Assembly (NCBI GenBank): GCA_009779935.1
Contig: WRAX01000005.1
Location: 24,248-88,247, forward strand
Direction of reading: 5' to 3'
Origin: Defluviitaleaceae bacterium
GTDB lineage: Bacteria > Bacillota > Clostridia > Lachnospirales > WRAX01
DNA length: 64,000 nucleotides
In this document: in pieces, positions 13,118 through 50,707 of the stretch
Position numbering within the stretch: the first letter of the stretch is position 1
Layout of the letters: every line of letters starts with the position of its first letter
Made by a program: the position numbers and the translations under genes
Notes under the pieces: model-generated
The model's input: the letters and a program-made list of their open reading frames with translations, nothing else
Database searches by the model: none
Told to the model about the DNA's origin: nothing

Positions 13118-16100
13118 TCACTCCCTAACCTGCAACAGCTCCAAAGGCGGTTTTCTTGTGGTTAAAGCAACCCCGATGACCGCCCCAAGCACCGAGCCGA
13201 CGAGGTATATCCCAGCAGCCGAAAGTATTGCTACTGCACCAAGGCCCCAAGCGGCAAGTACCAGCCAAAGGATGCCCATAAGCAGGCCGCCAATGCAAAC
13301 CGCAAGCAGCTCTATTGTTAAAATGCTTTGTGTTTTGCTTTTGCCGGTTCCCAACACCCGCATGGTGGCTGCGTTTTTAGCCGATTGCAGCATTAACAAC
13401 ATAGAGAGACCTATTGCAATTGTTGCTGATATTGCAAGTGCAACGGGATACATTAAATCCAATAACAGTATTGTTTGCCCCACAGCTGTTGTTGTGTTTC
13501 GCAACTCCTCATCTTGCAGAAATAGGTGCATAGAGAGGTTGCGAAGTCCTCCAAAACTGGCCGGTATCACTTCTAAGGTTTCCCGCACCCGGTCAATTTG
13601 GGGATTATGGATAGTATCAACAGCAAAAGATAAAACCGAGTAGGAAATAAAACCTCCAAGTACATATTCCAATGCGGCAGTGGGGATTAAGGAGATGTTT
13701 GAGTTGCCGCCCGACAGTATATGGCTGTTGTGTGTGCCTATTATCCGGGCGTGAGCCGTTTCCATGCGGGAGATGTTGAGTATGAAAAAACCAATATTCA
13801 CATAATCGCCAACATTCAGCCCTTTTTCTTCCAAGGTACTCTGCGGCATGATAATCGGCACTCTGTCACCTCGCTCATAGCCTGCAAAGTCTGCCTCGCT
13901 AAATCCGGCACCAAATTCAAATTGGATGGTGTTGCCCCAAAAGTCTGTATTTCTTGCTACAAAGTCCTCAAAACGGTTAAAGCCACGCAGTGTTTCCATT
14001 CTATCAAGGTTGCCCATAATGCCTAAGGAGGTATCTATGCCTGACAATTCTTCCCAATTTTGCGGCATGGCTTCCCCGCCCGGGTTATGGACAAAAAATG
14101 CACGCCCAAAGTCGGTTTCTGTGTAGATATGGCTTAGAAGATACTTATGTTGCGCCAACATCTCCACAGTCCGCCAGCGAATGGAATTTTCTGTAACACC
14201 CATAATGATTTGGCCCGGTTCGCTTGGGCCAATACTCCCTGTTACAATTATGGTGTTATTTAGCCTGTCAATTTCATTTTGGTTGCGTATGCCAGCTTCT
14301 TGCAGCCAACCTATGGCCACAACAAATATTAATGCCACAGCAAGCCCAAGGGCGGATTTTAACACATTGCGCCTAATATGACGGAAAACCCAGCCCGCCG
14401 CCCCTGCCAATTTTGACAAGGGAGCTGTCGGCAACGGCTTTTCCAGCGCAACAAATTCTTTGAACGCCGTTGTATTTGGGGCATTTTTCATATCCTCATC
14501 TATTTTGCCATACTTTTTTAGTCCAAATTGCTTAACAGCCCTAACACTATTCCCTTGCAAAGCAACCAAGGCAGGCGTGTGCAGCATATACCTCACTATT
14601 GCCGCCGTAATAATAAAAAGAGCCGCTATTACCACAGCTGTTAAGCCCGCAAGCCAGTACACGCCCAAGCCCACATCAAATTCGATAACCTGCGGTGGTG
14701 GTGGGCGCAGCATGGGGTGGGTAATTACATAATCCATTAAGAAGGTGGCGAAAGGCTCCAATGCGGTTGCCACTGCCCTTCTCGCAAGAAGCCACCCCCC
14801 AATACCCCCGGCAATTGCTGACGGGATAGCGAAAAACAGCAGGGCTTTTACCATGTGCCATGATATGGTTGCTTTGCTTATGCCCAGTGCCCGGTAAATG
14901 GCAAAGTCCTTTTTTCTTTGGAAGGTGAAAACAAAACCAACCAAACCAAGCACCACCAATACCACAACCCAAAACAATAGGGCATTAAATAGGTTTACCA
15001 TAAGCACTGTTTGGGCTGTTGCCAAAAAACTAAGGCTGTTGGCGGTATCACTCATTATCACTATATTGTAGTTATATAATTCGGGCTGTTCCTGCACCCA
15101 AATTAAAAATTCTTGAACCTGTGTGGGGTCTGACAGGGTGAAACTATACCATGCTTCCGCTAAATAATCCGGTTGCGCAAGGCTTACACCGGCGGGGATG
15201 GCAGAGGCAGGGGCAAAAACAAAGGTTGCTGGCATTCTTCCAACAAAACCAAGATGGGAGATGGGCCTGCCCCAATAGCTAAAAGTTCCCACAACCTCAA
15301 ATTCCACAGCATGGCGATTACTGTATATTGTTGACCCTGCAACGGGTATACCAAGAAATGGGATTGCCCCGCTTATATACTGCTCTTCATGGAAATACAG
15401 GGTTAAATTGCTGCCAACATACAAACCATGGTATGTGGCAAAGCGACGCTCTATATACACCACATTTCGCCCTTCTATATAATCTTCGTGGTTAAGGGGT
15501 CGCCCTTGCACATTGCGTAAACGTGCAGGTTCGCCTGCAAAATCTGCGGAGATTGTAAGGTCGCTTGTAAAAGTAACCTGCATTGACCTTTGGTGGTTAT
15601 TAAGAAAGGTGATTTGGTTGGGCAAATGCTCAAGACCAGATTTGTTTGCAAAATCCAGATTTTGGGCATTATTTGCTGGCACAAACCAAATCCCTTCTTC
15701 TTCATTAATGGGCATCATCACTAATGGGTCTATGGTACGTGTTTCCTGCTCCCATAAATTTATCATAAATGAAGACCCAATAATAAATTCTCGTGGGTTT
15801 CCCGTTTGAGGTATGACTATAAAAGGATTTCCTGTATCTTGTTGGAAAATTCGCATAATATATCGCCCACGGAACAAAAATCTTTCACCCGACTGCAAGG
15901 CTTGGGCATTTTCCGACCCTATAAGGTCTGCATCAAATTCCATGAACACAATCTGCCCTTCAACCACATGTTGGGGCATGCCTGCATAAACGTGTCCCAC
16001 CCGCATTACCACCCAATGCACGCCCTGCGACCAAATGGTTTCGTATATTACCCCGTAAAAATACGCATCGGTGATACGTGATTGGGAAGCATCCGGCAAG

Positions 16101-33066: not shown

Positions 33067-33663
33067 ATGCCTTGGTTTAGAAGCAACTATTTTAGGATCG
33101 ATACAAGGATTGTCGGAGTTTCTGCCTGTGTCCAGTTCGGGGCATTTTGATATAAGGACAGAGGGTAATCTAACCTTTATAATTGTGCTTTAATAAAAAA
33201 GCCATTCCAAAAGACAACCGCACTCTTGGTAATTGCTACTATTCCGCTTGTAGTCGTGACGTTGCTGTTTGAAAAGGCATATAGAATCATTGTTTTATAC
33301 GGTTCATCTATTGCCTTTCGGCTTTGTTATAACAGGCATTTGCGGTTTTGCCCGGCATATCTGGTTCCGGCAGTACCATCACGGCAACAATGGCAGGGGC
33401 ATAAACCGTGAAAGTGCCGCAAAGTTTTCATTCCTCATGTCTGTCCGGCGGCAATTGTAGCAATGGTATTTAGGGTTAGCTGCATAATTTCAGACCCGGA
33501 ATTACTTTCAGGGTTAAACTTTGTGAATTTAAGTTTGGGCTTTGTAACAGGGTATATGGCAATAAATATCATGTTGGATATCGCAAGAAAGGCAAAAGTT
33601 GAAATACTTTGCCTTTCTTGCGTTTTTGCGTTAGCTGTGCTGATTTTCTTTTTTAAGAAATAA
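33067..33663 (+). pseudogene. uppP: undecaprenyl-diphosphatase, degraded
   Basis: UppP segments lie in different frames separated by stops: [64 protein letters not shown]-terminal GFVTGYMAINIML. Confidence 0.8.
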
Positions 33664-33686: not shown

Positions 33687-33749
33687 ATGAAATCAAAAAC
33701 AAAGTTAACTGTGAGCATCTTTGGTGGCAGTAATGCTGTTGTTTGTTAA
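33687..33749 (+). CDS. 20-aa ORF, candidate short hydrophobic signalling peptide
   Basis: RBS GGAGGG 6 nt upstream; MKSKTKLTVSIFGGSNAVVC; lies about 250 nt upstream of the XRE-TPR regulator. Confidence 0.25.
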   Translation: MKSKTKLTVSIFGGSNAVVC

Positions 33750-33994
33750 GTTAAAAGATGGCCAAAATTGTGGCATGTGATTTATAACATCTTCTAAGTG
33801 ACCATTATGCAATATTGTTACACCAAATGATAAGCTGCATTAATAGCTTATGCATGCTCTTCCGCAAGGTGATGGAGTGTGGTGTAGTTGAAAATATTAG
33901 CTTTACTATCAGTGGCAAATATGATACAATATAAGTACAAAAAATTACAAAAAAACTGAAAATCCCCTATTTTATGGGGGAGGGGGGAGAAATT

Positions 33995-34917
33995 ATGAAA
34001 ATGTACATTGGTAAAATGGTTAAGAAGTTGCGCTCGGAAATGGGCATGAATCAAGAAGAATTAGCAGGACGGCTTTTTATGTCAAACAAGAGGCTTTCAC
34101 GTATTGAAACCGATAAGGCGAAGGTGGATGTTTGGCAAGCCATAAAAATATTAGAACTTGCCGGTCAATCTTTTGAAGATTTTTGGTTGATGCCCTTGGA
34201 TTCTTCTGATTATGACGGATACTTGATTTATCGAAATTTAAGAAAGAGTTTGCGTGATAATAACAATGCTGAAGCGGAAAGTTTTTTGGAGCAATTCAAG
34301 AAAAGTCCAATATCCAAAGAACCTTTTGCCCAGCAAACCATAGCATGGGCAGAAATTAGGCTAAACAACAATTTAAGCCATGAGAAGCCATAAAAAAATT
34401 ATATGAGGCATTGCGTATGTCAAACCCAGAGTTTGATGAATCCAAGATAGCCGAATACCGCTTACAACACCAAGAAATACGAATACTGATGAGCATCGCA
34501 GTGAGAAGTAACAAAATCGGTGACAAGGATAAAGCGATATACATAACGGAAGCCCTAATTAATAACAGGGAAAATCTCCGAACTTCGGAGGATGATAAAG
34601 CAAGCTTCCTGCCTGCGCTTTTGTTCAATCTGTCTAATTATCTTGGTCAAGCTGGTAAGATAAGAGAATCCTTGCAAGCTTGTGACAAAGGCTTAGAAAT
34701 TTGCCGTGAGTATAATCGCTTTGATCTTACACCAGTATTGCTACATAATAAGGCTACTAATCAACGCATGTTAGGAGAAGAAGAACGCATGTACAGAACC
34801 CATCTAATAAGAGCATATCATTCCGCAAATGCCATGGGTCAATTTGATGTGGCCGAAGAGGTCAAAAAAGATGCCGAAGAAAGCTTCGGCATCAACATCA
34901 TGAAGTTTTGGGATTAA
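33995..34917 (+). pseudogene. XRE-HTH + TPR regulator (RNPP-like architecture) split by a frame change
   Basis: HTH part (MKMYIGKMVKKLRSEMGMNQEELA...) stops at 34391-34393; the TPR part is open in the -1 frame from 34384 (EAIKKLYEALRMSNPEF...); together about 300 aa. Confidence 0.55.
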
Positions 34918-34922
34918 CTAAA

Positions 34923-35090
34923 TCAATTATCGCCATCCTCTTTATCAGGATGCTTGTAATTAAATGGTGCCATATTGCATCCTGAATATGAGTATGCAAT
35001 ATGATAATTTAGCGATGAAAATGACAGGACAATAACCGCCGCAACAAGGAGTGTAAAAATACGGCTGGCAATTTTTTTCATATTTTTCAT
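34923..35090 (-). CDS. 55-aa secreted pro-peptide-like ORF
   Basis: MKNMKKIASRIFTLLVAAVIVLSFSSLNYHIAYSYSGCNMAPFNYKHPDKEDGDN; basic N-region, hydrophobic core, single Cys, acidic tail; RBS AGAGGGA; below the track cutoff. Confidence 0.45.
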   Translation of the reverse strand: MKNMKKIASRIFTLLVAAVIVLSFSSLNYHIAYSYSGCNMAPFNYKHPDKEDGDN

Positions 35091-35150
35091 CAAATCCCTC
35101 TTTTCCAGTGTTTTTATACTAACCCATACAGGTTACCACATGCAAGCATC

Positions 35151-35279: not shown

Positions 35280-35460
35280 TTGGTCTTAGTTTCGGCAATA
35301 ACCCTGCCACCGGCAATGGCATCATGGATGTTGGCAGGATGAACTTTTATGTGGAGCAGCAGACGACCTTCAACCTTCTTACCCCCCAACAAATCCACTA
35401 AACTGCGTAGCGCATGCTGTCTTTACGCTTCGGGGGTCGATGATGGTGTAGTTAGGTTTA
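35280..35460 (-). mobile_element. IS5-family transposase remnant (left, inverted copy)
   Basis: Minus-strand translation gives NYTIIDPRSVKTA and GGKKVEGRLLLHIKVHPANIHDAIAGGR in different frames; 35280-35434 is the reverse complement of 37482-37636. Confidence 0.7.
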
Positions 35461-35544
35461 GACTTTTGACCAAGTTTAATTTCGCTTTTTTCACCACACT
35501 ACATGGATTTTTATCATCAAAACGAAAGTGAAGGGGGGGTGCAA

Positions 35545-37137
35545 ATGTTAAAAATTTTAAAAATAATACTAAAAGAGCCGTCATCTAAGATAATTTTGGC
35601 ACTTTATCCTTTAATCGCTTTGCTGTCGGGTATTTTGCTAGTATATAGCAATGATATGCTCAGAAATGTTTTCAACAACCACATAATGCTATTAGAGTTT
35701 AACAACTTTTTATATAGCACCCTGTTTGTAGTTGGACTATTTGTTTCATTATTCCTTTTAAGGGTTGTGAACTCATATATTAAAGAGAAACTTCATCATA
35801 CAGGTGCGAATAATTTAATTGAGCACTACACAAACAAACTACTAAAAGCAGACTATTCATACTATCACAAAAAAGAAGCACCAGCAATTTGGGATAAGTT
35901 AGAAAGGTCTACTATTGGTACAGGGAATTTCTTTGGGTCGCTCATAAGTTCTATTAGTACAATGATAAGTTTTGTTTTTTATGCAATTGTTATATTTAGA
36001 ATAAATTTATTTGCAGGATTGATAACAATGATAGCTATTCCTATTTATTTCTTTCTTACTGTCGGATTTAATAAAAATTTCATGTCCTTGCAGATGGAGC
36101 TGGCTAATAGCATGGGGCAACTGGCTGTGGTGGGTCAAGAACCTCTCGAAAATGTGGTGAACGTAAAAACAAAAAATGCATATGGTTTTTTTGTGAATCG
36201 AATAATGAAGATACAAAGAAAAATATCCAAACTGTTTCGTAAGTTCAATGTTTTGTCTGAATATCATAATGGCATAACGGGTCTTGTGTCTGTCGTTGTA
36301 CCCATCTTGGTATTATTTGCTACATTGCAGGTTTCGGACACATTTACAACAGATATGGGGACAGTGCTGATACTTTATATTAACATACCGCTGTTTTTAA
36401 GTGGATTTACAAGCATTTACAAGAAATATATTATGTACAAAACCCACAGACATTTCATAAACGGTCTCCTAGAATTTGACGATATGCCCATAGAACATAG
36501 CGGGGAGATAGAAATAAATGACTTTGAAAACCTAGAAGTAAAAGGGGTTAAGGTGCGCTTTGACGATACACGAATTATCAGTATTCCTGATTTCGTTGTG
36601 AAAAAAGGAGAAAGAGTAATGATATTTGGGGAGAGCGGAATAGGCAAATCAACCATCTTCAACATTATAGTTGGCATTCATACAGAATACGAGGGCGATA
36701 TAATAATTAACGGTATTAATTTGCGAAATATCAGCACCTATTCCTTGCGTAATGTTTTTGGTATCGTTTTACAATCTGTCAATATTTTCTCCATGTCACT
36801 GGAAGACAATATCTTGTTAGGCATTCCCAATGACAATTTGAATGAATCAGTTAGCCTTGCCAACCTTAAAGAACAAATGGATTTTAAGGTCGACCAGGAA
36901 CTAAATAACAAAGTTGTGTCGGGTGGCGAAAAATCGCGTGTTGGGTTAGCTCAGACCCTAGCTCGCAATACCCAAGTGTTGATGATAGACGAAACGTTTT
37001 CCAGTATAGATGAAGGAATGGAAGAGCGTATAGTTAAGGGGCTTTTTGAAATGCATCCACACAAAACCTTTATATGTATCAGCCATCGCAGTTCAAGCCA
37101 GACTTATTTTGATAAATTCGTGGACTTCAATTTATGA
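35545..37137 (+). CDS. ABC exporter, fused TMD-NBD half transporter
   Basis: ATG 35545 after RBS GAAGGGGGGG; 5-6 TM then Walker A GESGIGKST, signature VSGGEKSRVGLA, Walker B VLMIDETFSSID; no N-terminal C39 peptidase domain. Confidence 0.85.
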   Translation: MLKILKIILKEPSSKIILALYPLIALLSGILLVYSNDMLRNVFNNHIMLLEFNNFLYSTLFVVGLFVSLFLLRVVNSYIKEKLHHTGANNLIEHYTNKLLKADYSYYHKKEAPAIWDKLERSTIGTGNFFGSLISSISTMISFVFYAIVIFRINLFAGLITMIAIPIYFFLTVGFNKNFMSLQMELANSMGQLAVVGQEPLENVVNVKTKNAYGFFVNRIMKIQRKISKLFRKFNVLSEYHNGITGLVSVVVPILVLFATLQVSDTFTTDMGTVLILYINIPLFLSGFTSIYKKYIMYKTHRHFINGLLEFDDMPIEHSGEIEINDFENLEVKGVKVRFDDTRIISIPDFVVKKGERVMIFGESGIGKSTIFNIIVGIHTEYEGDIIINGINLRNISTYSLRNVFGIVLQSVNIFSMSLEDNILLGIPNDNLNESVSLANLKEQMDFKVDQELNNKVVSGGEKSRVGLAQTLARNTQVLMIDETFSSIDEGMEERIVKGLFEMHPHKTFICISHRSSSQTYFDKFVDFNL

Positions 37138-37140
37138 TTA

Positions 37141-37800
37141 GAACCCACTTTCAATAAAAGTCCTGTTTGTAGTGGGTGGCCTGCAGGTGCTTGCGAGTAA
37201 CTCAGAACCCGTTTTCAATAAATCCCCAATCCTGCCGATATACAATGATAAACAGGATGTGAAAACATATGAAATATCGCACCAAATACCCAATGACCTT
37301 ACCGCCAAGCAATGGAGCTCCATAAAACACTTATTCGAGAAAGGAAATCGTGGCAGTCATTTCCGTACACATAGCAAGCGAAAACTTGTTGATGCCGCAC
37401 TTTACCTTAACAAGGCTGGATGCCATTGGAGGCAGTTGCCAAAAGATTTTCCTAAGTGGCAGACTGTGCATTCATTCTGCTCCCGAAGCGTAAAGACAGC
37501 ATGCGCTGCACAGTTTAGGGGATTTGTTGGGGGGTAAGAAGGTTGAAGGTCGTCTGCTGCTCCACATAAAAGTTCATCCTGCCAACATCCATGATGCCAT
37601 TGCCGGTGGCAGGGTTGTTGCCGAAACTAAGACCAAATACCCCACAGTCAAGGGTATTGTTGGTGGTGCCGGTTTTCGTGGCACTTTCAAGAAAGCCCCA
37701 GAAGCGATCTTAGTGAATTTGATTTTGGCTTTGGAGTTTTCGGCAAAAAGAACCCCCCACAAATCGGCGGCCCCGGCGGCGGCAACTGGACTATAATACC
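37141..37800 (+). mobile_element. IS5-family element remnant with internal deletion (right copy)
   Basis: N-terminal domain LTAKQWSSIKHLF...LYLNKAGCHWRQLPKDFPKWQTVHSF joins directly to RSVKTA; later KKVEGRLLLHIKVHPANIHD in another frame; two GAACCCnnTTTCAATAAA copies at 37141 and 37205. Confidence 0.7.
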
Positions 37801-37979: not shown

Positions 37980-39341
37980 ATGAAAACAAAAATCCCCAAA
38001 ACCATCACAATCCTAACTCTACTAACACTAACCATGGTCTTCTATGCCTGTGGGGGTACCGAAGTAGAGTGTGGATACAACGACGACGATATCGGCAATT
38101 ATAATGATTATAAAGCCAAACATGACTATGCGTACATAAGCATACAACCCACAGAAGACGAACTTAGACATCAAGTATCACAACTTTTGATTGAAGACCT
38201 GGAATTACTTTACAAAGATATGCGTTCAAACATTATGGCTCTTTCAAATGCAGTGTATAGACGAACCCAGCACGAAGTAGGGTTTGGCATTGATATTTGG
38301 AGAAGCATGAGGCGGATTATTGAAAATCTTGAAACTGGAAGCGTGCAGTTTGGTGCAGGTGTGACGGATTTTGACGAGATGCTTGCGGCCGGCTCGCAGC
38401 ATATAGTTAGTCGATTGAATTTTTAGGTCATAACACATCTGGCCTACTGCATCTTGGGGCATCCACCGAGGGCTTTGCGGGAATTGGGTGGGATGACCAC
38501 TATGGGTCCATACTCGTCCGTCCGTTAAGAACATATCAATCCATTCAAGAAATTGATACTTCATTCAACCCCTAGGCATGGCACCAGCAAAAGCTTAATA
38601 AGTGGCAATATTGCGTATTTAAGAATAGAATCTGCTTTAAATATAGATTTAGACAGAAATAATTTAATGCAATTTTATGAAGAAATACAGAATTATAGCC
38701 ATCTCATTATTGATATAAGAAATCATATGGGAGGGCATTATTTTCATTTTGCTGACGTGGTAATGAGTCCACTTATAGAAAGTGCCGTTCATGCAACGTA
38801 TTATCAATTTTTTACAGAAGGAGAGCACCGTGCTTGGCAAATGGCAAATGTGGATGCATTGTGGGACGAATTCTATGAAATGGGTTGGCGCACTATGGAA
38901 GTTACGAATTACGAAGCTTCCGTATTTGTATCAGAAAATAACATGATATATTTTAACGAAAGTGATTTGGGCTATCTATCCTATGCCACAAGATTCCGAT
39001 ACACAATTCATCCTTCGTACACAAATTTTCCTTTCAGAGGCAAGGTGTGGTTGTTGATTGACGGCGCACAATCAGCAGGAGTAGGGGCTGCCATATATGC
39101 CGAAACATCAGGATTTGCAACAACGGTGGGCAGACCAACAGGTGGCGTTACACATGCGGAACGAACTTATTTGAGATTGCCAAACTCTGGGGTGTATGTA
39201 CATGTAGATGTAGGTTATATCGTAGATGCCAATGGCCGCTCTGTGGTAGAATTTGGATGGCCACCCCAAATACCCAGCCGCCCGGGCTTGGATGCTTTGC
39301 AGACCGTACTTGCTTTGATACAGGAGGGCTATGGGCAATAA
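37980..39341 (+). pseudogene. S41-like peptidase lipoprotein, disrupted by frame changes
   Basis: Lipobox MVFYAC; three pieces in frames 0/2/0 (37980-38426, 38426-38575, 38553-39341); C-terminal piece has IIDIRNHMGG and aligns with the intact paralogue at 47308. Confidence 0.6.
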
Positions 39342-39547: not shown

Positions 39548-40954
39548 GTGGCTTTATTGCATAACAATTTAATAATAAATAAAAACAGCGAAAGATTTAC
39601 ACCTTTTCTAATCAACCTACTGTCCGGAAGAAGGCGATTGCTTAAAGATGATGAATTTCAACTCATAAAATCCATGGCATTAAAACAGGACTTGGCGGAC
39701 TATACTGAGGATGAGTTAATTTTATTCGGAAACTTAAAGGCGGAGAAGCAACTTTTGGAAGAGAATGAACGCATAATGATTGAAGAGAAGATGAATGATA
39801 TAGGTTATTTTCATACAAACACGGACATTCCTGATGAAATTGAATTTTCAATTCACTTAACGTGGAAGTGCAATATGAGTTGCTCCTACTGCATTGCCGG
39901 CTCGTATGTTGGCAATGATTTGACCATAACGTCAGAGCATGTGGATAGCATCTATAACTTCTATCTAAATTTTATGAGCGAAGCTGAGCTTCAAGCAAAG
40001 GTTAAGAGCATTGGAATATCTGGCGGCGAACCCTTGCTGAACTCTGAAACTGTTGGTGCCCTGAATTACATAAATAAAAAATGGCCAAATGCTAAGTTAG
40101 GAATACTTACAAATGGTGTGAATTTGTTGAAATTCTATCAGCACTTACCTTTGAGAAATATCGAGGAAGTTCATGTTTCTTTAGATGGCTTAAAAGAGAC
40201 TCATCTGGATAGGTGATACAGTAACGAAAAAGTTTCACCAGATATCTACGATAATATAATAGGTGGCATAAAAAAACTTTTAGAAGATGAAATTTCAGTA
40301 ACGATTAAAAGCTGCATTGATAAAAATAATTATAGAGAACACCAAGAATTTAAGAGCTTCTTAAAAGAAGAGGGTATTACCACATCATCTTTTTGTACAC
40401 ATCAGAATTCTCATATAATGGACTTTAATAATCATTTAAACATAGATGAAAACTCCAATAGCGTAGAGGACATACGAAGAATAAGGGAATTTGTCTTTCC
40501 TGACCTTGCCTACATGCCACCTTTTTCTGACCTTGCTATTTTATATCAGATGATGAGTCGAATAAGTGACGAACCTTTCATGCCAAAGCGCATGAGGTGC
40601 AGTAGCGGCTTCTTATCAAAATACGCATTTGCACCAAATGGAAAAATATATTTTTGCACCTGCAACACTGCGAGTTCAGGAATGATAGGAGAATATTATC
40701 ATCAAATGTCAATCGATAACTCTGTGATATCTGGGCTTGCGCACAGGAGTGTGATGCAAAGTGATGAGTGTAAAAAATGCCCATATAAATTTGTTTGTTT
40801 GGGTTGTTGTCCGAAAAACTCAGAAGGACAGCTTGCAGATATGACAAAGATGACCTGTGGTGTATTTGGGTTTCCTGAAATTTTAGATAATATTGAGTTT
40901 GACTACCGCACAATTGCAAATGTCAAAAATAACTCAGATAGAAAGGTGGTTTGA
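39548..40954 (+). pseudogene. radical SAM/SPASM peptide maturase 1, single in-frame TGA
   Basis: CNMSCSYC (CxxxCxxC), GGEPLL, C-terminal SPASM Cys pattern (YFCTC...ECKKCPYKFVCLGCCP); ORFs 39548-40216 and 40418-40954 share a frame that is open across 40217-40417. Confidence 0.8.
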
Positions 40955-40956
40955 CC

Positions 40957-42530
40957 ATGAAGAGATTTTTGCTTTCCACTCTGGCGTTCTTCATGTTGCT
41001 ATTTTTTGTTGCTTGTAGCAACAATGAATCGGAAGCTGATGACTACAATGACAACCACGAAAACGAAGCGAAAGCTATAATGGTGGTTGATATCGAGTTT
41101 AATAATGCCAATCCAATAATGGCTCGCATAACCAACTATGCTGTAACAGCACAAATCGGAAACAGAGCTTATTTTTTTCATGATGCTGATGAAGCTGCCA
41201 CAGAATTTGTTAATATTGCAGAAGCCATAATACTGCAGCTGGAAAATTACATAGCAATACCATACTTTCGACTGCAAATTTATAACACACCTAATCCTAA
41301 AAACTATCGATTTAGCCATGTGGAGATCAGTGTAAATTTTGATAACAACGATACCTTTGGATGGCTCGCCAACCAACTTTCCCGTAACCACTTGCCCATG
41401 TGGCTGTCGGTAGGGTTGGAAGCTTACGTAAAAACGAATTTAGGCATTTTTGCACCAACCGACAGTAGCTTTTTATCAGGTACTCATTTTAGCGACTTAT
41501 CATTCGCTCCTAATATGCAGCGAACCACCGAAAGAAACATTGCTATTAATATGGCTTATGATTTTACAAGCCACTTATCGGAATCAGACATACTATTAGA
41601 TCTTGTTGCATTGTATCAAACAGGTCATACGTATCAAGCAAATGAAAAAGCATCACGGCATTTTTATAACCACTTCGGGTGGCATATGCACACAGCCATG
41701 ATAAACATGGTCAACTCAACGATTGCGATAACAAGTGGAGTAGATGTCATAACCTTCTTTTTCAATTGCCTGAGCGACATACCGCACATTAATGATATTG
41801 CAAACTACATAGAATATATACGCAATGCGATTGATTTTACTGTGGATTTTATGGCGCAGTTTACTGATTTTGAGGCTGGTGATATAAGGGTTGATATTTA
41901 CTATGATGAGGAAGCCACAATAGCTTTCGCATTTAATGACTGGATAACCATAAGAGGGGCTTTAATATTAACTGGATGGCTCACGAAGTGGTGCATGCGG
42001 TTCTATATTGGGTGTATAGCCAGCAGGGTATTCGTCCACCCCGTCATCTTGAAGAAGGATTTGCCATGTATGTTGATTCCATTTTTATCCTTTCGGAAGA
42101 ATTTGACCATCAACTTGCCCATTTGAGCCATCTTGAAAATGAATTTGGTGAAAATGCTCTCAGAAACATGGTCAGTAAAGAGATTGACTTTGCTTGGCAC
42201 TTTATATCACACTATCGTCTAACCCGAATGGATTATTACTACACGGGGGATTTTGGGCATCGCATCCCATACTCAGAAGTGGGGTCGCCATACCACATCC
42301 CAGCTATTAACAGGCACGAAACGGCTGCTTCTTTTGTGATATACCTTATACACACTCATGGCATCGATAGCTTTGTACATGTACTTTGGGATACCCACAA
42401 TTTTTATCATACATACGGAAGGGATATACATGGTATGGTTGAAGAATGGCGGGAGTTTTTGCACTACTTTGTTGAGAATCATGAATATTATTACGAATGG
42501 GAATCGATATCCCAAAGCTTTTGGGGATAA
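40957..42530 (+). pseudogene. MA-type (HExxH) metallopeptidase-like lipoprotein 1, frameshifted
   Basis: Lipobox LLFFVAC; LPMWLSVGLEAYV; frame change at the G4 run 41956-41959; downstream frame carries MAHEVVHAV...LEEGFAMYV. Confidence 0.65.
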
Positions 42531-42572
42531 TCATTAATTCATTTGAATGTTTACGGATCAGTTGTACTTGAA

Positions 42573-42886
42573 ACCAAGAAAATATGGGGTTGACCAACTC
42601 ATGCAAGCACTTACAAAGGAGGAAAAAACATGAAATCAAGCGATCAAATGACATCTATAATCGACTTAATGTGGGAGCCAGAAGAAACAGTGGAACTATT
42701 GTCCCCTACAATGACGCAGCAGTGTATGGATATGAGTTGTTATCCTGGCATTACACTCCCTTGGCTGTGTATGTCATGTTTTCCAATGAGCAGTAATCGA
42801 AATTGGATTTGTTAGTTAAAAGCTGAGCAAAGAAGCTGCTGCGTTACAAATACATCAGCGGTTGGTCAACCCTATATTTTCTTGGT
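42573..42886. repeat. 26-bp inverted repeat pair flanking precursor gene 1
   Basis: ACCAAGAAAATATGGGGTTGACCAAC 42573-42598 and GTTGGTCAACCCTATATTTTCTTGGT 42861-42886; 25/26 complementary. Confidence 0.85.
42630..42815 (+). CDS. Cys-rich precursor peptide 1 (61 aa)
   Basis: RBS AAAGGAGG; MKSSDQMTSIIDLMWEPEETVELLSPTMTQQCMDMSCYPGITLPWLCMSCFPMSSNRNWIC. Confidence 0.7.
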   Translation: MKSSDQMTSIIDLMWEPEETVELLSPTMTQQCMDMSCYPGITLPWLCMSCFPMSSNRNWIC

Positions 42887-42901
42887 TTTGGAGGATGTAA
42901 A

Positions 42902-43117
42902 ATGGAAAAGAGTTTAGATACAGCAAACTCAATAACATCTATCATCGACTTGATTTGGGAGGTAGATGACGTAGCAGAAGTGGTTGTGCCAATGATGAAC
43001 AAGGCTTGCATAGGCAATAGTTGCAGCATGAATACAAGGTCTCCACAAAATCCTCCCGCTTCCACCTTGGGCGGGTCCTCAAGGTGCATTAAATCCACAA
43101 AAAGGAGTGGCGTTCAC
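42902..43117 (+). CDS. Cys-rich precursor peptide 2, no stop codon before the next gene
   Basis: RBS GGAGG; MEKSLDTANSITSIIDLIWEVDDVAEVVVPMMNKACIGNSCSMNTRSPQNPPASTLGGSSRCIKSTKRSGVH runs in frame into the lipoprotein ATG at 43118. Confidence 0.6.
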
Positions 43118-44539
43118 ATGAATGTAGCTAAAATTTCATCAAGATTAAAGTGTATTAGTAGGTTGCTTATTGCTATATCGGCATGTGTAGCATTAATACT
43201 ACTATCTGCTTGTAGCGAAGAAGCTAATGTTGCAGAACATTACAACCCAGAACCCACTATCATGGTAGAATTTGTCGAAACAAACCCCATAATACAGAGA
43301 ACCACAGGATATACAATCACCACACAGGTGGGTCGCAGAACATATCTATTTGAACAAGATGACCCAGTGGCTAACACCGACTTCATTAATACCGTAGAAG
43401 CTATAATCAATGGACTGGACCAGTTTATGGACATACCATACTTCCAACTACGTATACGTCACACCACAAACCCGCAAAATTACCATTTTTCTGCAACAGA
43501 GATTAGCTTTAACCTTGACAACGACGATACCTTTGGATGGCTTGCGCATATTTTGAGCCGTGGCAGTATGCCCATGTGGTTGTCGGTTGGATTAGAGGCT
43601 TATGTTAGGGCAGGATTGGGGTTGTTTGCGCCTGCTTCGCACAACCCTTCATTTGCATTGAATAATTCGGTATTTTTGCCTTATCTCTGGGGCACGGAAG
43701 AGCACACACAAGCTATTAATGCAGCTTATCATTCAGTGGTAACAAATGGTCACTTAGAAGATGTTATAAATCACATGCCACAATTTTGGCTATCTTTCAA
43801 TTTAATAAACAACAGCATTACTGCCACCAAAGATATGCTCACAGTAAACTTTGTTTTTGAGCATATCGGCGACCTCATATCTCTTGACGATATTGAGCAA
43901 TATATAGCTTATATATCCGATGCCAAAATGTTTGTAACAGACTTTTTTACTCAGCACAGGAATTTTGAGCTTTCTCCGATAGAAATTACCATAAATTATA
44001 CCAACACCAACACTTTTCCATTGGACATGTCGCTTCCTCGACGAATTTACATAAATGATAAGAGTTATGTTTCTGCAACGCCCGCACTGTTGGCTCACGC
44101 AGTGCTTTTGGATATTGATTCAGAAAATTTGCCAGTTGGTGCATTGCGCCATGGGATTTCCAACTACTTAAGAATCAACTTTAACGCTTCTGATAATTTC
44201 ACTCATGTGCTGCCTCATACAGATGCCGGCGATAGAAGTAAACGTCAAGAGCATTATCGTAATTTGCGTATTAATGGGAGTCACGCTTTAGCTTACAACC
44301 ATTTCGCCAACGGTTATCCTAACTATTTTAGTTACAACTCCAGTGCGGGTAATTTTAATATCGGCACTACCGATACTGCCCATTCCTTTGGCTTGTATTT
44401 GATAGATACATATGAAGTAGAATATTTTTTGGATGCCATATGGAATGTTGAAAATTTTGTAAATGTTTATGGTAGGGATGTTCACGGCATGATTGATGAA
44501 TGGATGATTTTTTTGAAAGATTTATTCAGCACCGAATAA
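43118..44539 (+). CDS. MA-like lipoprotein 2 (catalytic motif degenerate)
   Basis: Own RBS AAGGAG; lipobox ALILLSAC; paralogue of 40957 (FGWLAHILSRGSMPMWLSVGLEAYV); HExxH position reads AHAVL. Confidence 0.7.
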   Translation: MNVAKISSRLKCISRLLIAISACVALILLSACSEEANVAEHYNPEPTIMVEFVETNPIIQRTTGYTITTQVGRRTYLFEQDDPVANTDFINTVEAIINGLDQFMDIPYFQLRIRHTTNPQNYHFSATEISFNLDNDDTFGWLAHILSRGSMPMWLSVGLEAYVRAGLGLFAPASHNPSFALNNSVFLPYLWGTEEHTQAINAAYHSVVTNGHLEDVINHMPQFWLSFNLINNSITATKDMLTVNFVFEHIGDLISLDDIEQYIAYISDAKMFVTDFFTQHRNFELSPIEITINYTNTNTFPLDMSLPRRIYINDKSYVSATPALLAHAVLLDIDSENLPVGALRHGISNYLRINFNASDNFTHVLPHTDAGDRSKRQEHYRNLRINGSHALAYNHFANGYPNYFSYNSSAGNFNIGTTDTAHSFGLYLIDTYEVEYFLDAIWNVENFVNVYGRDVHGMIDEWMIFLKDLFSTE

Positions 44540-44604: not shown

Positions 44605-44793
44605 ATGGACTTAAAAAAGATTGAAATTTTGATTACACCGGTCATCGACCTTATATGGGAAGTTGATATTATTGAAAACACAGAATTTTTGCCAACCAAC
44701 ATGGTTGTAACTTGCATGGATATTAGTTGTGGTGGTTTTGGTCTTGTTTGTGGGGGTTCCTGGAAAACCCCCATGTGTCGCCCGTTAGGTTAA
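44605..44793 (+). CDS. Cys-rich precursor peptide 3 (62 aa)
   Basis: RBS AAGGAGG 8 nt upstream; MDLKKIEILITPVIDLIWEVDIIENTEFLPTNMVVTCMDISCGGFGLVCGGSWKTPMCRPLG. Confidence 0.7.
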   Translation: MDLKKIEILITPVIDLIWEVDIIENTEFLPTNMVVTCMDISCGGFGLVCGGSWKTPMCRPLG

Positions 44794-44885: not shown

Positions 44886-46260
44886 ATGAAGCTTATAAGG
44901 CATGTAATTCCAGTGGACATAAACAGTGAAGAAAAGCTGATGATTAACTCCTTAAACGGTATTATTGATAAAATTAGTGTACCTGTTTATGAAATCTTTC
45001 GAAAGTGGAGAGGGGTTGAGGAGATAGTTCCCGAATGCGAGGTGGAGGTCGCCTTATTTGAAAGCCTCAAAATGCGTGGGTATCTATCAAATAGCTCAAA
45101 AGATGAGGATGTTGTGAAAGAGAAACTTGTAGCTCGCTTACGGGAAATAAGCACCAAGCAAAGAGAGGCGTGCAGGAGCATCACCTTTATCCCTTCATAT
45201 AACTGCAACTTCCGATGCCCTTATTGCTTTGAAGGAGAAAACACTCTTAAAAAGGGAAATTATGACACCAGATCAAGTGGATGCCGCATTAGAATTGGCT
45301 GGTGAAAACTTGGAAAGCGTGGGGTTTTTTGGTGGAGAGCCTTTGTTGGCATCCAATAAAAAAATATTAGAATATATTATATCAAAAACCAAAGGGAAAA
45401 CTTTTAGTATCACCACCAATGGATATCACTTGGAGGAGTTTTTTGAAATCTTGTCACCACTAAAATTTTCTGAAATCTTGGTTACACTGGATGGAGGAGA
45501 GGACACTCACAATAGTCGTAGGTTTTTGGTGGGCGGCAAACCGACATATAGCAAAATTTTGAAGGGTATTGAAAAGTGCCTGTCAAATGGCATGCCCATA
45601 TGCATTAGGATGAATCTGGAAAGTAGTAATCTGGAAGAAGGTCAACTCTTGCAACAAGAACTTATGAATAGATTCCAAAAGCATGGAGGATTGGTTTCAT
45701 TTGAAATGGGAACCATTTTTGGAATACCCGAAGAAGACAAAGTAAACATTCTCACCCAGCTATATAAAACAGATGCTATATGTTCGCCAGAAGAAAAGCG
45801 AAAAAGAAATAGCATGGTGGGTAGATTTAATCCCATAATAAATAGCATGACCATAGGCACAAAGCTACGACCAACATACTCATTTTGCTCCGCTCACATA
45901 AGCAGCTTCATTGTTGATCCCTATGGAATGATATATGCCTGTCTCCCATCAGTCGGCAAACCCACCCTATCCATCGGCACATACTACCCCAACATCGAAT
46001 TTAAAGAAAAAAGCATTTACACCCGCAATATAGAAACAATCTCCGAATGCAGAGAGTGTGTCTATTCATTACTTTGTGGCGGGGGTTGCCCTTTGGGAGT
46101 TATGAGATGTGAAGATGATATAATGAAACCGGAGTGCTTCTCCATTAAAAACCAAGTGCATAACATATTGCCCAGGTTTTACAACATTAACGAAGATGCT
46201 AAAAATAAAAACAAAGAAACCAAAAACCAAAACCAGCCAGCAAAAGCTTGTTCTTTGTGA
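44886..46260 (+). pseudogene. radical SAM/SPASM peptide maturase 2, 1-nt frameshift
   Basis: CNFRCPYC lies in the frame of ORF 44817-45305; GGEPLL and the SPASM pattern (ECRECVYSLLCGGGCP) lie in the +1 frame of ORF 45229-46260; switch within 45236-45260. Confidence 0.8.
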
Positions 46261-46285: not shown

Positions 46286-47266
46286 ATGATGACAAACGCC
46301 CTAATATTAGCTGACATTGAAGGTATCATCGGTGTTAATGAAACATTTGGTGATAATGCCGGTGAATTGTTCACACAAGAAGTGGAGCTATGTATCAATG
46401 TCCTGTTGGAAAACGGCATCCACAAAATCACTGTTTGCGATGCCCATAACAAGGGGGACATGATTTTACCCAGAATTACCGAGGGGCGTGATAATGTCAA
46501 GCTGGTTTCGCAAGTCCGCAGTGTTTGTTTTGCAGAAAAGTATGACTTTGCAATAATGGTTGGATATCATGGAATGGAAGGCAGCCCCGGCATTTGGCCC
46601 CACACATACCGCTATGATATTAAGCAGACTTCTATTTTCGATAAAAGATTAGGAAAAAACATTCCCATTGGCGAGGTGGAGATTGGTGCCAGATGGCTGG
46701 GCTTTCATGGTGTGCCGGTTATTTTTGTATCTGGTGATAGAGAGGCGGCTTACGAAGCCAATCAATTCAACCCATACAGACAAGCTTCTTGTATAAGAAC
46801 ACTCCTTCAAACCGAAGAAATAAAGATTGAAGTTTTGCGTGATAAATTAGTGCAAGATCTCAAATCATCTTTAAAATTGGACTGGGATTTATGCTTGTCC
46901 TGTGATAATAGTCCCATTCTGGTTGAGTTTTACCACTCTGAAACCGCTGATGCCTTAGTGGCAAAGGGATATACCAAATTCATCAACGTAGATGGCAGCG
47001 AGGGCATCACATTCAAAAGCTGTTCTGAACTTGTTAGCGAAATCCATCACATAGCCGGCCTCTTAAATCAAATCGGATTTGAGGTGGAAACCGCCAACAT
47101 CGCTTTCTTAAAAGAGGTACGTGAATTAGCTAAAAATCTTGATAAAGATGCAGTTGCAAATTCGGAGGCCGGGCCACTACTTAGCACCAGCCTTACCCTG
47201 TTGGACAAGGTGGCTCGTGATAAAGTTATGGTGATTTTGAGGAGTATGGTGAATGGAAGTGTATAA
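46286..47266 (+). CDS. M55-family D-aminopeptidase (DppA-like)
   Basis: LADIEGIIG, VCDAHNKG, MVGYHGMEGSPGIWPHT and IGEVEIGARWLGFHGVPVIFVSGD align with B. subtilis DppA motifs as I recall them. Confidence 0.8.
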   Translation: MMTNALILADIEGIIGVNETFGDNAGELFTQEVELCINVLLENGIHKITVCDAHNKGDMILPRITEGRDNVKLVSQVRSVCFAEKYDFAIMVGYHGMEGSPGIWPHTYRYDIKQTSIFDKRLGKNIPIGEVEIGARWLGFHGVPVIFVSGDREAAYEANQFNPYRQASCIRTLLQTEEIKIEVLRDKLVQDLKSSLKLDWDLCLSCDNSPILVEFYHSETADALVAKGYTKFINVDGSEGITFKSCSELVSEIHHIAGLLNQIGFEVETANIAFLKEVRELAKNLDKDAVANSEAGPLLSTSLTLLDKVARDKVMVILRSMVNGSV

Positions 47267-47307: not shown

Positions 47308-48726
47308 ATGACAAAAAACAAAAACAAAAACATCAACCCAATAGCCCGCACCGGCCTCTTAGTTCTGGCGATGGTTCTTTTTCTATTAATACCCACAAGT
47401 TGCGGCAGCCAAAACAATGAAGATGAAACCCGTTTTGTCTTAGAGTCCGACTGCCCTTATCTTTACGACTTCCATTACTTAATACGGCTTATGGAGGATA
47501 CATTTCCTCACTTTGGTGTAGTGTATAGAAATTTTGGAGTGGATGTGAGACAACTGGCAGATGAAGCCATGGAGCGCATCGCAAACCATCCTGGTATGGA
47601 CGACAATATTCTTTTTGATGAAATTGCAGACCTTTTTATTCCACTTTTACCAGTTGTTCATGCGCAGCCCTTATTCTACCAGACCTTTCCACTCTGGAAA
47701 TACAGATTTGGAGGAGCTGGCGTAGGGCAACTAATAAGCGAAGGTAGTGCATTCAATGCAAATACTTTTAACAATGTGCGTTCAATAGAATTTTATGAAC
47801 GCCAAAGGCAAGCCGGATGGGACATGACACCACAAACGGAAGAAGCGTTCGCTTTGCGACCTGCTATACACACTGACCTTGATAATTTTCCTGTACAACC
47901 CGCATGGAATCGAATAGCAGCCACCTATATAATCGAAGAAGGCAGAATTGCTTATATGAACATACCTACTTTTATGCATCATGGCGCAGGCGGAATAGAA
48001 AGGGGAAGTTTGTTTAATTTCTACACAGAAATACAGGATTACGAGCACCTTATTATAGACATTAGAAATAATGGAGGTGGATATACCTTTTTTTGGGAAA
48101 ATAATATCATGCTACCACTATCGAACAATGCGCCCGTTGTACCAATATATAACTTTTTCCCCCAAAGCGAACGTGGCTTAAAGTTTGCACAAATTTTTGC
48201 TGATGACCACTACCAGAAAGGTATAGGAGCAGATTTGGTGACCTCAGAGTCATTTTCTGCCAATTATGCATATCCTATATCTATATCAGAGTTTTTAAAT
48301 GATAGGCAATTTCCATACCTAAACCAATCCGACCTACAATACTTAGGATATGTGGTCCCACTTACCCAAAGTGTAAGAAATCTAAACCCCATGTGGTATG
48401 TGCCGGAAATACCTTTCCATGGTCAAATATGGCTTTTGATAAATCCCGTAAACGCTTCATCTGCCAGCATGTTTGCCCGCCACGCCAAAGATTCTGGTTT
48501 TGCCACTTTGGTGGGGGAGCAAACAGGTGGACATTTTGGTGCTGGGACACTTCGTATTTTCTTCCCCCTACCCAACACAGGCATTATTGTAACTTGGGAT
48601 GTAGGCTACAAAACCGACCAATACGGAAGATCATGGGAAGAATTTAGAGTAATGCCCCACCACCAAAACATGCCTGGTATGGATGCGCTTGAAACTGTGC
48701 TTTTTCTTATTAATGAAGGGTATTGA
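47308..48726 (+). CDS. S41-like peptidase lipoprotein (intact copy)
   Basis: Signal/lipobox LLIPTSC; IIDIRNNGGGY, NASSASMFA, GEQTGG motifs of C-terminal processing peptidases. Confidence 0.75.
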   Translation: MTKNKNKNINPIARTGLLVLAMVLFLLIPTSCGSQNNEDETRFVLESDCPYLYDFHYLIRLMEDTFPHFGVVYRNFGVDVRQLADEAMERIANHPGMDDNILFDEIADLFIPLLPVVHAQPLFYQTFPLWKYRFGGAGVGQLISEGSAFNANTFNNVRSIEFYERQRQAGWDMTPQTEEAFALRPAIHTDLDNFPVQPAWNRIAATYIIEEGRIAYMNIPTFMHHGAGGIERGSLFNFYTEIQDYEHLIIDIRNNGGGYTFFWENNIMLPLSNNAPVVPIYNFFPQSERGLKFAQIFADDHYQKGIGADLVTSESFSANYAYPISISEFLNDRQFPYLNQSDLQYLGYVVPLTQSVRNLNPMWYVPEIPFHGQIWLLINPVNASSASMFARHAKDSGFATLVGEQTGGHFGAGTLRIFFPLPNTGIIVTWDVGYKTDQYGRSWEEFRVMPHHQNMPGMDALETVLFLINEGY

Positions 48727-48880: not shown

Positions 48881-50707
48881 ATGAAACCCCTAACCCTCTG
48901 CAAACCCTATCTACTGCAACATAAATTAAAACTAACCCTATACATAACAATAACCCTATTAGCCACTGCCATATCCATCCTAACCCCCTTCATCATAGGT
49001 AACTTCCTTGATCACCTAATCGAAGGGGGTGATGTGGGGGCTATTTTGCGTTTTTGTGCAATATTTGGTGGGTTGGGGCTTTTGCGTATATTCAAAAACT
49101 ACATAACATCCCTTATATACGTTAGGATGCAAACCCAGATGAGTTACAACTTTCACCATGATATCACAAAACACATCCAAAGCCTTTCACTCTCCTACAC
49201 CAACAATCAAGACAGCACCTATCTAAACCAACGCATAAATAGTGACACAGGCAGCCTGATTGTATTCTGCATAACCATCCTTAACAACGTACTGGTAAAC
49301 CTAATTATGATTATTGCACCCTTTATCATACTGCTAACCATGAACTGGTTTATTACGGTTTTATTGGCCGGCTTTCTTTTGTTATATGCCGTCTTATATA
49401 CGGCCTTCAAAAAACCCATTTACAATGCAGGGTTTCGCTTAAAAGAAGCGCAGGGTAAGTTTTTCTCCACCCTTTTTGAACAATTAAAACACATCAAACT
49501 CATTAAAACAAACTCCATACAGCCCGAAATTAGCCGTAGGACTGATAGTGGATTTGTAAGATTTAAGGCGGCAGCTGTTCACAACCAAAAAGTAAGTTAT
49601 GTGTACTCCGGTATGGATGGATTTATATCCACACTCGCACAGATCGCCTTATTTGTGGTTGGTGGCTTGCAGGTGCTGTCCGGTAATTTCACCATAGGTA
49701 TGTTTACCATCTTTACCAGTTACTTTACCATGATTTTGGGTTCCAGTAGATATTTCTTTGGCCTTGGGGCTTCTTATCAGCACACCCTTGTCGCTTATGA
49801 TCGGGTCAAGGAAATATTGAACCTTAAACCCGAGGGTGGGGGTAGAAAGATAATTGACAGTGTTAGCAAGATACAAGCAACTGACCTAAGTTTTTCTTAT
49901 GCGGTTGGAGATACGAGCCACAGTTTAAGTCAAGACCAAAAAGAAAGGCGAGAAGGAAACAACCGGAAAAAAGATGACCCTCACGAGGGCATTAACTCAC
50001 ATAATATCAAAAATCATAATCCAGCCCTAAATTTCAACGAAACAGGCAGCACTACCAAAGCGAATCCTAAGGTGAACGACATCATCGAAACAAAGCGAAA
50101 AAGGGTTCTTGAAGGACTTAGTATAGAACTAACCAAGGGTAAAATTTATACCCTATCCGGCTCAAATGGCTCGGGCAAGTCCACGCTTATCAGTTTAATG
50201 ATGGGTATGTATGCTGATGAATATGATGGCCGTATAACCTATGACGGCACAGATATTAAAGACATAGACATGATTGCCGCAAGAAGAAGCCTTATTGGAT
50301 TTGCAGAGCAAGAACCTACACTGATAAAAGATTCTATTTTGTTTAACCTTTGTTTTAATGAGTCGCTCGATTCTCTTTGTTCATCAAACCAACGCATCAA
50401 CAATCTGGACAAGCATATGCAAACCCTTGGGATGAATGATTTTATTGATAAAAACGGATTGCATTTCCCGCTAAACGAAAGCAATACCAACACCTCCGGT
50501 GGAGAGAAGCAAAAAATATCCATCTTAAAGGTACTGTTAAAAGACCCACCTGTTATGATTTTTGATGAGCCTACATCTGCACTTGATTCTGATGCCACCG
50601 AAAGGTTTATGGGATATTTGCAGGGTATTAAAAGTAATAAGATTATTGTTATAGTTACGCATGATGGGGTTGTGGAGGAGATGTGTGATGAGAGGGTTTG
50701 TTTGTAA
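48881..50707 (+). CDS. ABC exporter (TMD-NBD) with a hydrophilic insertion at the start of the NBD
   Basis: 6 TM; Walker A GSNGSGKST, signature TSGGEKQKISILK, Walker B VMIFDEPTSALD; no C39 domain. Confidence 0.85.
   Translation: MKPLTLCKPYLLQHKLKLTLYITITLLATAISILTPFIIGNFLDHLIEGGDVGAILRFCAIFGGLGLLRIFKNYITSLIYVRMQTQMSYNFHHDITKHIQSLSLSYTNNQDSTYLNQRINSDTGSLIVFCITILNNVLVNLIMIIAPFIILLTMNWFITVLLAGFLLLYAVLYTAFKKPIYNAGFRLKEAQGKFFSTLFEQLKHIKLIKTNSIQPEISRRTDSGFVRFKAAAVHNQKVSYVYSGMDGFISTLAQIALFVVGGLQVLSGNFTIGMFTIFTSYFTMILGSSRYFFGLGASYQHTLVAYDRVKEILNLKPEGGGRKIIDSVSKIQATDLSFSYAVGDTSHSLSQDQKERREGNNRKKDDPHEGINSHNIKNHNPALNFNETGSTTKANPKVNDIIETKRKRVLEGLSIELTKGKIYTLSGSNGSGKSTLISLMMGMYADEYDGRITYDGTDIKDIDMIAARRSLIGFAEQEPTLIKDSILFNLCFNESLDSLCSSNQRINNLDKHMQTLGMNDFIDKNGLHFPLNESNTNTSGGEKQKISILKVLLKDPPVMIFDEPTSALDSDATERFMGYLQGIKSNKIIVIVTHDGVVEEMCDERVCL

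Follow-up and report, generated by a model that had tools for sequence, protein, structure and literature searches.

Two genes for paralogous lipoproteins, copy 1 and copy 2, lie at positions 40957-44539 of the 64,000-nucleotide stretch analysed here (the window), which comes from contig WRAX01000005.1 of a Defluviitaleaceae bacterium (GCA_009779935.1) and matches a metagenome-assembled Defluviitaleaceae genome with the locus tags FWE21 (ENA contig k141_1640169, 105 kb). They stand in the middle of a gene cluster for a peptide that is made by the ribosome and modified after translation (RiPP), and raise the question of what such proteins do there, and of why the only copy that retains an HExxH motif is frameshifted. 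The explanation that is judged probable is that these proteins are extracytoplasmic RiPP-processing peptidases, and that copy 1 has recently become a pseudogene and copy 2 is a dead, fast-diverging paralogue, in a cluster that is decaying.

The 5′ part of copy 1 (40957..41959, + strand, frame 1) begins at ATG 40957 and encodes the signal peptide with its lipobox, the N-terminal module and the β-strand part of the C-terminal module. At its end the signal peptide reads FVAC (Cys20, 41014-41016), and its sequence, MKRFLLSTLAFFMLLFFVAC, has the positively charged N-terminus, the hydrophobic stretch and the lipobox ([LVI..][ASTVI][GAS]C) that are characteristic of bacterial lipoproteins, the substrates of signal peptidase II. 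Homology to the relatives of copy 1 extends in frame 1 as far as ...NDWITIRG at the GGGG run 41956-41959 (+ strand), and resumes past this run in the frame of ATG 41976 (GFNINWMAHEVVH...). By comparison with the intact homologue at a related locus, L015, one base is missing from the run, and the reading passes from frame 1 to frame 3. Addition of one G at 41956-41959, or equivalently a -1 shift of the reading frame at the run, joins the open reading frame (ORF) 40957-42126 with the ORF 41976-42530, and gives a copy 1 protein of 524 aa in place of the product as called (P0001), which has 389 aa including an out-of-frame tail. The 3′ part (41960..42530, + strand, frame 3) is otherwise undamaged, and encodes the HEVVH helix (41982-41996), LEEGF (42048-42062) and the C-terminal helices, with 19 residues separating the second His from the conserved Glu. 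The frame correction proposed in the initial annotation is borne out by the alignments, because the repaired protein matches copy 2 over its full length (33% identity, E 1e-75) and aligns end to end with P0002, an intact homologue encoded on another contig of the same genome (51% identity). To judge from their sequences (36% identity), the two copies are paralogues that separated long ago.

The 389-aa out-of-frame product is recorded in four assemblies, namely ENA megahit, JGI 3300010369, Logan SRR5215140 and Logan SRR10512952; all four read GGGG, and up to 8.4 kb of their DNA match the window with 100% identity. Because the same run is found in four assemblies, an assembly artefact is very unlikely. 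As is usual for a pseudogene, the frame is disrupted relative to the L015 homologue and to P0002, and reproducibly so; copy 1 is therefore best read as a recent pseudogene that has lost one G from a G5 run, the break being recent because all conserved family positions downstream of it are still in place. The same preservation, with every conserved family residue kept downstream of the shift and no further damage, and the fact that a homopolymer is the place of the break, would also suit a functional copy 1, whose frameshift would be an artefact of assembly, or would be bypassed by programmed -1 frameshifting or by phase-variable slippage at the G run. Such a functional copy 1 is highly improbable, because the GGGG run is common to assemblies that differ in their pipelines and derive from two or more sequencing runs, the site AGA GGG GCT is not a slippery heptamer of the form X XXY YYZ and re-pairing in the -1 frame would set the Gly tRNA on AGG, a G4 run is short for slippage, and other genes of the same cluster are damaged in different ways, including by a nonsense codon. 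Programmed frameshifting was rejected from the sequence of the site. Since the ORF downstream of the break has no signal peptide, its product would have no way to meet the lipoprotein beyond the membrane, and the downstream part of the recent pseudogene would be unable to act alone.

Copy 2 (P0006; 43118..44539, + strand) is an intact ORF of 473 aa with a lipobox, the N-terminal signature and a degenerate metal site. ATG 43118, which is preceded by the ribosome-binding site aaaggag at 9-15 nt upstream, is most likely the start of copy 2. The ORF is open upstream to 42902, and gene callers give a 545-aa fusion because the gene for a precursor peptide immediately upstream, precursor B, has no stop codon. 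The lipobox of copy 2 is LSAC, with Cys32 at 43211-43213 (reading ...RLLIAISACVALILLSAC), and the protein shows the same lipoprotein features as copy 1. Both lipoboxes are found where the initial annotation placed them, as is the common N-terminal motif FGWLA(N/H)..S..(L/M)PMWLSVGLEAYV, which occupies 41356-41430 in copy 1 (+ strand, reading FGWLANQLSRNHLPMWLSVGLEAYV) and 43532-43606 in copy 2. At the positions of HExxH and LEEGF, copy 2 reads ALLAH (44084-44098) and LRHGI (44144-44158), and lacks the first His together with both Glu residues, the catalytic and the downstream one. The arrangement typical of Peptidase_MA_2, an HExxH followed by a Glu in an EG.A helix, is thus present as HEVVH-x19-E(EGFA) in copy 1 and absent from copy 2, which agrees with the earlier observation that HExxH is kept by the frameshifted copy only.

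The two halves of copy 2 have diverged to different extents. The N-terminal module is 52-55% identical to those of catalytically intact relatives, which is as close as those relatives are among themselves, whereas the C-terminal module is only 26-29% identical to theirs, and pairs of intact relatives share 35-62% in this module. Over the whole protein, copy 2 is 38% identical to P0007, the family member of L015, while the neighbours of copy 2 reach 68-69% identity with their L015 counterparts. Because of the contrast between the two modules, the catalytic half of copy 2 probably evolved fast after, or along with, the loss of the metal site, and the N-terminal half appears to have stayed constrained. 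Copy 2 is best read as a derivative that is no longer catalytic; if it has a role at all, it would bind and not cleave.

Both proteins are members of a lipoprotein family of Gram-positive bacteria that has no name and is an undescribed branch of the zinc-peptidase superfamily. The family is sizeable, since a HMMER profile scan of 1.84 billion representatives yielded 226 clusters at 50% identity with E<=1e-3, and 57 with E<=1e-30, the members being mostly 450-620 aa long; among the curated models of Pfam and NCBIfam, none detects the family at its threshold. A word-indexed search returned five relatives only, and a second one with an 80-sequence alignment returned 3 proteins only. When related loci were searched with a 5-sequence alignment, the GTDB genomes yielded only the contig of another family member, P0005, and the JGI metagenomes yielded a few termite-gut contigs; one related contig is named for a Labiotermes termite-gut bin. 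In an alignment of 80 full-length members, to which all family conservation counts refer, HExxH is kept in 69, the xEG Glu that follows some 19 residues later is kept in 70, and 54 members match a simple lipobox pattern. The site is lost in 11 members including copy 2, usually with all ligands at once. The most conserved element of the family, above the metal site, is the N-terminal motif G..L..(8)..LPxWLxxGxE, in which P and W are found in 80/80 members, G in 79/80 and E in 77/80. A scan of the window proteins with NCBIfam gave signal-peptide noise only.

The resemblance of the second module of copy 1 to Peptidase_MA_2, which was suggested in the initial annotation, is supported by a sub-threshold match. 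The Pfam model (PF13485) aligns with residues 310-374 of repaired copy 1 at 20.5 bits (E 4.5e-4; the cut-off is 32.4 bits), and gives no match with copy 2, and 19/80 family members match it at E<=0.01, the best at E 8.4e-8. An AlphaFold model was computed for P0002 with the 80-sequence alignment (predicted local distance difference test score, pLDDT, 85.9; predicted template modelling score, pTM, 0.83). When this model was compared with the PDB by Foldseek, the top 50 matches were all M1/M61 gluzincins, such as IRAP, LTA4H, ERAP2, aminopeptidase N and EryP, a peptidase that acts on lanthipeptide leaders; the predicted catalytic module thus shows the three-dimensional similarity to solved gluzincins that is expected of the clan MA(E), thermolysin-like fold. 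In hhalign, the C-terminal module aligns with single-domain HExxH relatives of ~220-330 aa at E 8e-35. A profile search of PDB sequences gave nothing significant, the one match being BepA, at E ~2, on the HExxH stretch. Pfam and Foldseek both relate the C-terminal module to MA peptidases, and the outcome that the initial annotation named as fatal to its proposal, profile searches showing no zincin or MA relation, did not occur.

The GxMEN exopeptidase motif of M1 is found in neither copy nor in the family consensus, and the strand before HExxH carries a GG[fy]a-type consensus in its place. M1-type flanking domains are also absent, and the order of domains in the P0002 model differs from that of M1. 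Because both the motif and the flanking domains are lacking, the C-terminal half is a divergent Peptidase_MA_2-like gluzincin domain and not a member of M1. With HExxH, about 19 residues and then the Glu of xEG[LF]A, this module is best read as catalytic, presumably in most members of the family.

The N-terminal module was described in the initial annotation as an MA-type fold that has lost HExxH, and this description stands in part. In hhalign, the module aligns with the single-domain relatives over 168 collinear columns (E 8.5e-5, probability 60%, score 36.4), in which GWLTNQ is matched with the HExxH helix, and WLSxGLEAY with that of lsEGiAxy. All 61 controls scored below 36.4: the reversed template gave 10.9, none of 30 column shuffles exceeded 18.2, and the best of 30 block shuffles reached 28.0, over 39 columns. 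The alignment of the module with the C-terminal module of the same protein is weaker (local E 9e-4, global P 0.008), and is again collinear, and the order of strands and helices in the AlphaFold model is alike in both halves. HMMER with Pfam showed no similarity to peptidases, the N-terminal module alone giving 1/34 at E 0.05; a comparison with PDB sequences also gave no match. The N-terminal module is likely to be a degenerate copy of the catalytic domain without metal ligands, that is, the product of a duplication, as far as the profile alignments and the predicted model indicate. On this reading, each protein would consist of two thermolysin-like modules in tandem (clan MA, gluzincin).

The link of these proteins to precursor peptides, which had been proposed for the window, is supported by the gene order of L015, a contig of a related assembly on which the cluster is intact. 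The order there is an RNPP regulator, an S41 lipoprotein, P0007 with the intact site THEVVH...FEEGFA, a 63-aa precursor, a 444-aa radical S-adenosylmethionine (SAM) enzyme and an M55 peptidase (13225-14214). The leader of the L015 precursor is the same as those of the window precursors, and the radical SAM enzyme and the M55 peptidase are 68% and 69% identical, respectively, to maturase 2 and the M55 peptidase of the window. Adjacent precursor and maturase genes in an order kept by a relative, by which a candidate RiPP-processing peptidase can be recognized, are found in the window and in L015, and not around distant members of the family. In L015 the only family member is one that bears HExxH, with no dead copy beside it.

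From these features a pathway can be proposed for one subclade of the family, the gene of which appears to sit in a conserved, RNPP-regulated cluster that comprises an S41 lipoprotein, the MA-like lipoprotein, a precursor, a radical SAM/SPASM enzyme, an M55 peptidase and ATP-binding cassette (ABC) exporters. The precursor of the subclade, apparently Cys-rich and with a leader of the type ..(I/V)IDL(I/V/M)WE.., would be modified and then exported with the leader still attached, since the exporters seem to have no C39 peptidase domain. The lipid-anchored metallopeptidase, together with the S41 peptidase, would then trim the exported precursor on the outer face of the membrane. Any leader-peptidase or immunity activity of the two window proteins is putative. 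For many radical-SAM RiPP clusters with exporters that have no protease domain, the removal of the leader has, to our knowledge, yet to be explained. If the family does remove leaders, it would provide a new tool and a new marker for genome mining. A more elaborate possibility, which is put forward only tentatively, is that the proteins represent a new type of extracytoplasmic RiPP-processing enzyme, an intramolecular pair of gluzincin modules comparable in function to the two halves, active and inactive, of M16 enzymes, in which the inactive N-terminal module (LPxWLxxGxE) would recognize the leader or the cross-linked core and the C-terminal module would cut, with dead-site members such as copy 2 kept as peptide binders for immunity or as chaperones.

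The peptidase reading has to be weighed against two others. The proteins, or at least copy 2, might be non-proteolytic immunity or binding lipoproteins that sequester the mature peptide in a LanI-like manner, with the N-terminal module as the binding part. Copy 2 has no metal ligands or catalytic residues and is nevertheless an intact ORF with a well-conserved N-terminal module; in the family, HExxH has been lost independently in the 11 dead-site members, and all of them keep the N-terminal motif, and the lipid anchor and the adjoining precursor genes would suit such a function. This alternative is unlikely, because the metal site is complete in most of the family (69/80), no immunity-protein family was matched in Pfam or NCBIfam, and the L015 cluster has an HExxH-bearing copy only, which places a dead partner outside the conserved design; moreover, the cluster is non-functional in the window, where loss of the site may reflect mere relaxed selection. 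The single copy of L015 also means that a pairing of active and dead proteins is not an ancestral design, and the suggestion of the initial annotation that copy 1 and copy 2 form an active enzyme with a pseudo-enzyme partner is not sustained here, because the HExxH-bearing copy is truly frameshifted and both maturases, one S41 peptidase and the regulator are broken. Somewhat less likely still than an immunity function is that the proteins are general extracytoplasmic peptidases for peptide scavenging or turnover of envelope proteins, and that their position in a RiPP cluster is incidental, a result of lineage-specific gene shuffling. The occurrence of distant members among housekeeping genes would be explained in this way, as would the fragments of insertion sequences (IS) and the rearrangements in the window cluster. 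Against this, the window and L015 have the gene order around the family member in common although the lipoproteins themselves are only 38% identical, P0002 and P0005 stand next to remnants of precursor or radical SAM genes, and the exporters have no leader peptidase domain of their own.

RiPP processing outside the cytoplasm remains the probable function of the subclade, and several points weigh against it. The four assemblies show no single-nucleotide polymorphisms among them, and represent one strain and not independent populations. The Foldseek probabilities reach 0.99, but the E-values are weak, from 3e-3 to 0.26, and the fold matches were computed on the homologue P0002 and not on the window proteins, neither of which scores as high as the gathering cut-off with any model of Pfam or NCBIfam. 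L015 is the only intact cluster of this type that was recovered, and the uneven divergence of copy 2 fits relaxed selection in a dying cluster as well as it fits a retained role of the N-terminal module. Distant members, with 25-28% identity, are found among housekeeping genes with no RiPP genes nearby, both at L018 (pyrD, M29, mutS2 and ribosomal proteins) and at L011 (metNIQ and mnmE), and the family as a whole is for this reason not dedicated to RiPP processing. The picture is one of a family of general surface lipoprotein peptidases, in which one branch has been recruited into a type of RiPP cluster.

Among known peptidases, Pfam Peptidase_MA_2 (PF13485, CL0126) resembles the C-terminal module of the family in the HExxH, in the Glu that follows at a spacing of ~19 residues as part of an xEG[LF]A helix, and in the C-terminal ..SFV.YL.e.yG.. 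helix pair, whereas the window proteins are twice as long, have an additional degenerate N-terminal module with an invariant motif, and are lipoproteins. MEROPS family M1, including AplP and EryP (PDB 7v9o), provides the best structural matches and shares the HExxH-x18/19-E zinc site; unlike M1 enzymes, which are cytoplasmic and soluble, the window proteins are predicted to be lipid-anchored and extracytoplasmic, and have no GxMEN, N-terminal β-sandwich or C-terminal helical domain. AplP-type enzymes cut the leaders from class III/IV lanthipeptides, and M16 enzymes are also active in RiPP leader removal (PMC10885120). The pitrilysin-type M16 enzymes are comparable by analogy of design only, in that an active module is combined with a homologous module without metal ligands; their fold and motif (HxxEH, inverzincin) are different, and no similarity in sequence or structure to them was found here. 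Leader proteases that are extracellular or anchored, NisP among them, cleave the leader after export (PMC10885120). The logic proposed for the subclade would be analogous to that of NisP (S8), in which a modified precursor is exported with its leader and cut outside by an anchored protease, although NisP is a serine protease on peptidoglycan, and the proteins considered here are predicted metallopeptidases on a lipid anchor. A 2023 review of RiPP leader proteases lists the metalloprotease families M1, M16, M61, M103 and M50, and makes no mention of sactipeptides, ranthipeptides or lipoproteins (PMC10885120). The M55 (DppA-like D-aminopeptidase) family, the gene of which is conserved in the cluster type and the product of which might trim leader residues or act on D-residues, is also not in that list (PMC10885120). 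A search of the literature on Peptidase_MA_2, on RNPP-linked radical SAM clusters and on S41 in ranthipeptide clusters gave nothing usable.

The cluster of the window spans ~33.9-50.7 kb, in the order RNPP regulator, ABC exporter 1, IS5 fragment, S41 lipoprotein peptidase a, maturase 1, copy 1, precursors A and B, copy 2, precursor C, maturase 2, M55 peptidase, S41 lipoprotein peptidase b and ABC exporter 2. The RNPP-family regulator (helix-turn-helix and RNPP_C domains; 33974..34917, + strand) is frameshifted near 34385-34395, S41 peptidase a (37980..39341, + strand) is split by frame changes at ~38420-38560, radical SAM/SPASM maturase 1 (39548..40954, + strand) has an in-frame stop at 40214-40216, and radical SAM/SPASM maturase 2 (44886..46260, + strand), the best NCBIfam match of which is the PapB ranthipeptide maturase, below cut-off, is frameshifted near 45238-45329. 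These four genes are broken, in addition to copy 1, by comparison with the intact homologues of L015. The M55 peptidase (DppA-like; 46286..47266, + strand) and S41 peptidase b (47308..48726, + strand) are intact, as are the flanking genes that were checked, for example glgB. A C39 peptidase domain is absent from ABC exporter 1 (35503-37137) and from ABC exporter 2 (48881..50707, + strand). The cluster as a whole is decaying and non-functional here, and the frameshift of copy 1 is part of this decay. Because the window cluster is non-functional, study should move to L015, the intact relative being the object worth study. An alternative genetic code was also considered as the cause of the split genes, and was rejected, since 4/5 of the broken genes show true frame changes.

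The precursor peptides share a leader of the form ..(S/P)(I/V)IDL(I/M)WE.. and a core that starts with C(M/I)xxSC. Precursor A (42630..42815, + strand) has 61 aa, with the leader ..TSIIDLMWE.. and a Cys-rich core, and precursor C (44605..44793, + strand) has 62 aa and is homologous to the 63-aa L015 precursor. Precursor B (42902..43117, + strand), which runs in frame into copy 2, has the conserved leader and an atypical core with few Cys residues; it has probably degenerated as a precursor.

Decay of this type of cluster seems to be common in these termite-gut genomes. P0005 adjoins a truncated N-terminus of a radical SAM enzyme and a C-terminal remnant of another family member, and P0002 adjoins a degenerate start of a precursor gene; remnants of these kinds beside family members on other Defluviitaleaceae contigs lie at L008 9640-9765, L008 12044-12220 and L005 11669-11779. 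A Cas9 gene is found at L005 16791-19598, ~5 kb downstream of the orphan P0002. In the window, a remnant of a third family member (33717..33865, - strand) comprises ~50 codons with 82% and 73% amino acid identity to residues 193-239 of copy 2; this remnant lies upstream of the regulator and points to earlier recombination or deletion within the cluster. Just outside the cluster, 33226-33663 (+ strand) contains short ORFs only, with a faint match to BacA/UppP (E 0.009), and may be a broken gene.

Next to the regulator, at 34923-35093 (- strand), lies an ORF of 56 aa that begins like a signal peptide (MMKNMKKIASRIFTLLVAAVIVLSF...) and could encode the cognate secreted pheromone precursor. If it does, the locus would be a quorum-sensing-controlled radical-SAM peptide cluster outside streptococci. 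ABC exporter 1 is bracketed by an inverted repeat of 155 nt (35280-35434 and 37482-37636; 97% complementary) that consists of IS fragments, and an N-terminal fragment of an IS5-family transposase (DUF4096) lies at 37172-37537, also inside the inverted repeat. The exporter 1 segment looks like an IS-mediated insertion or inversion within the cluster.

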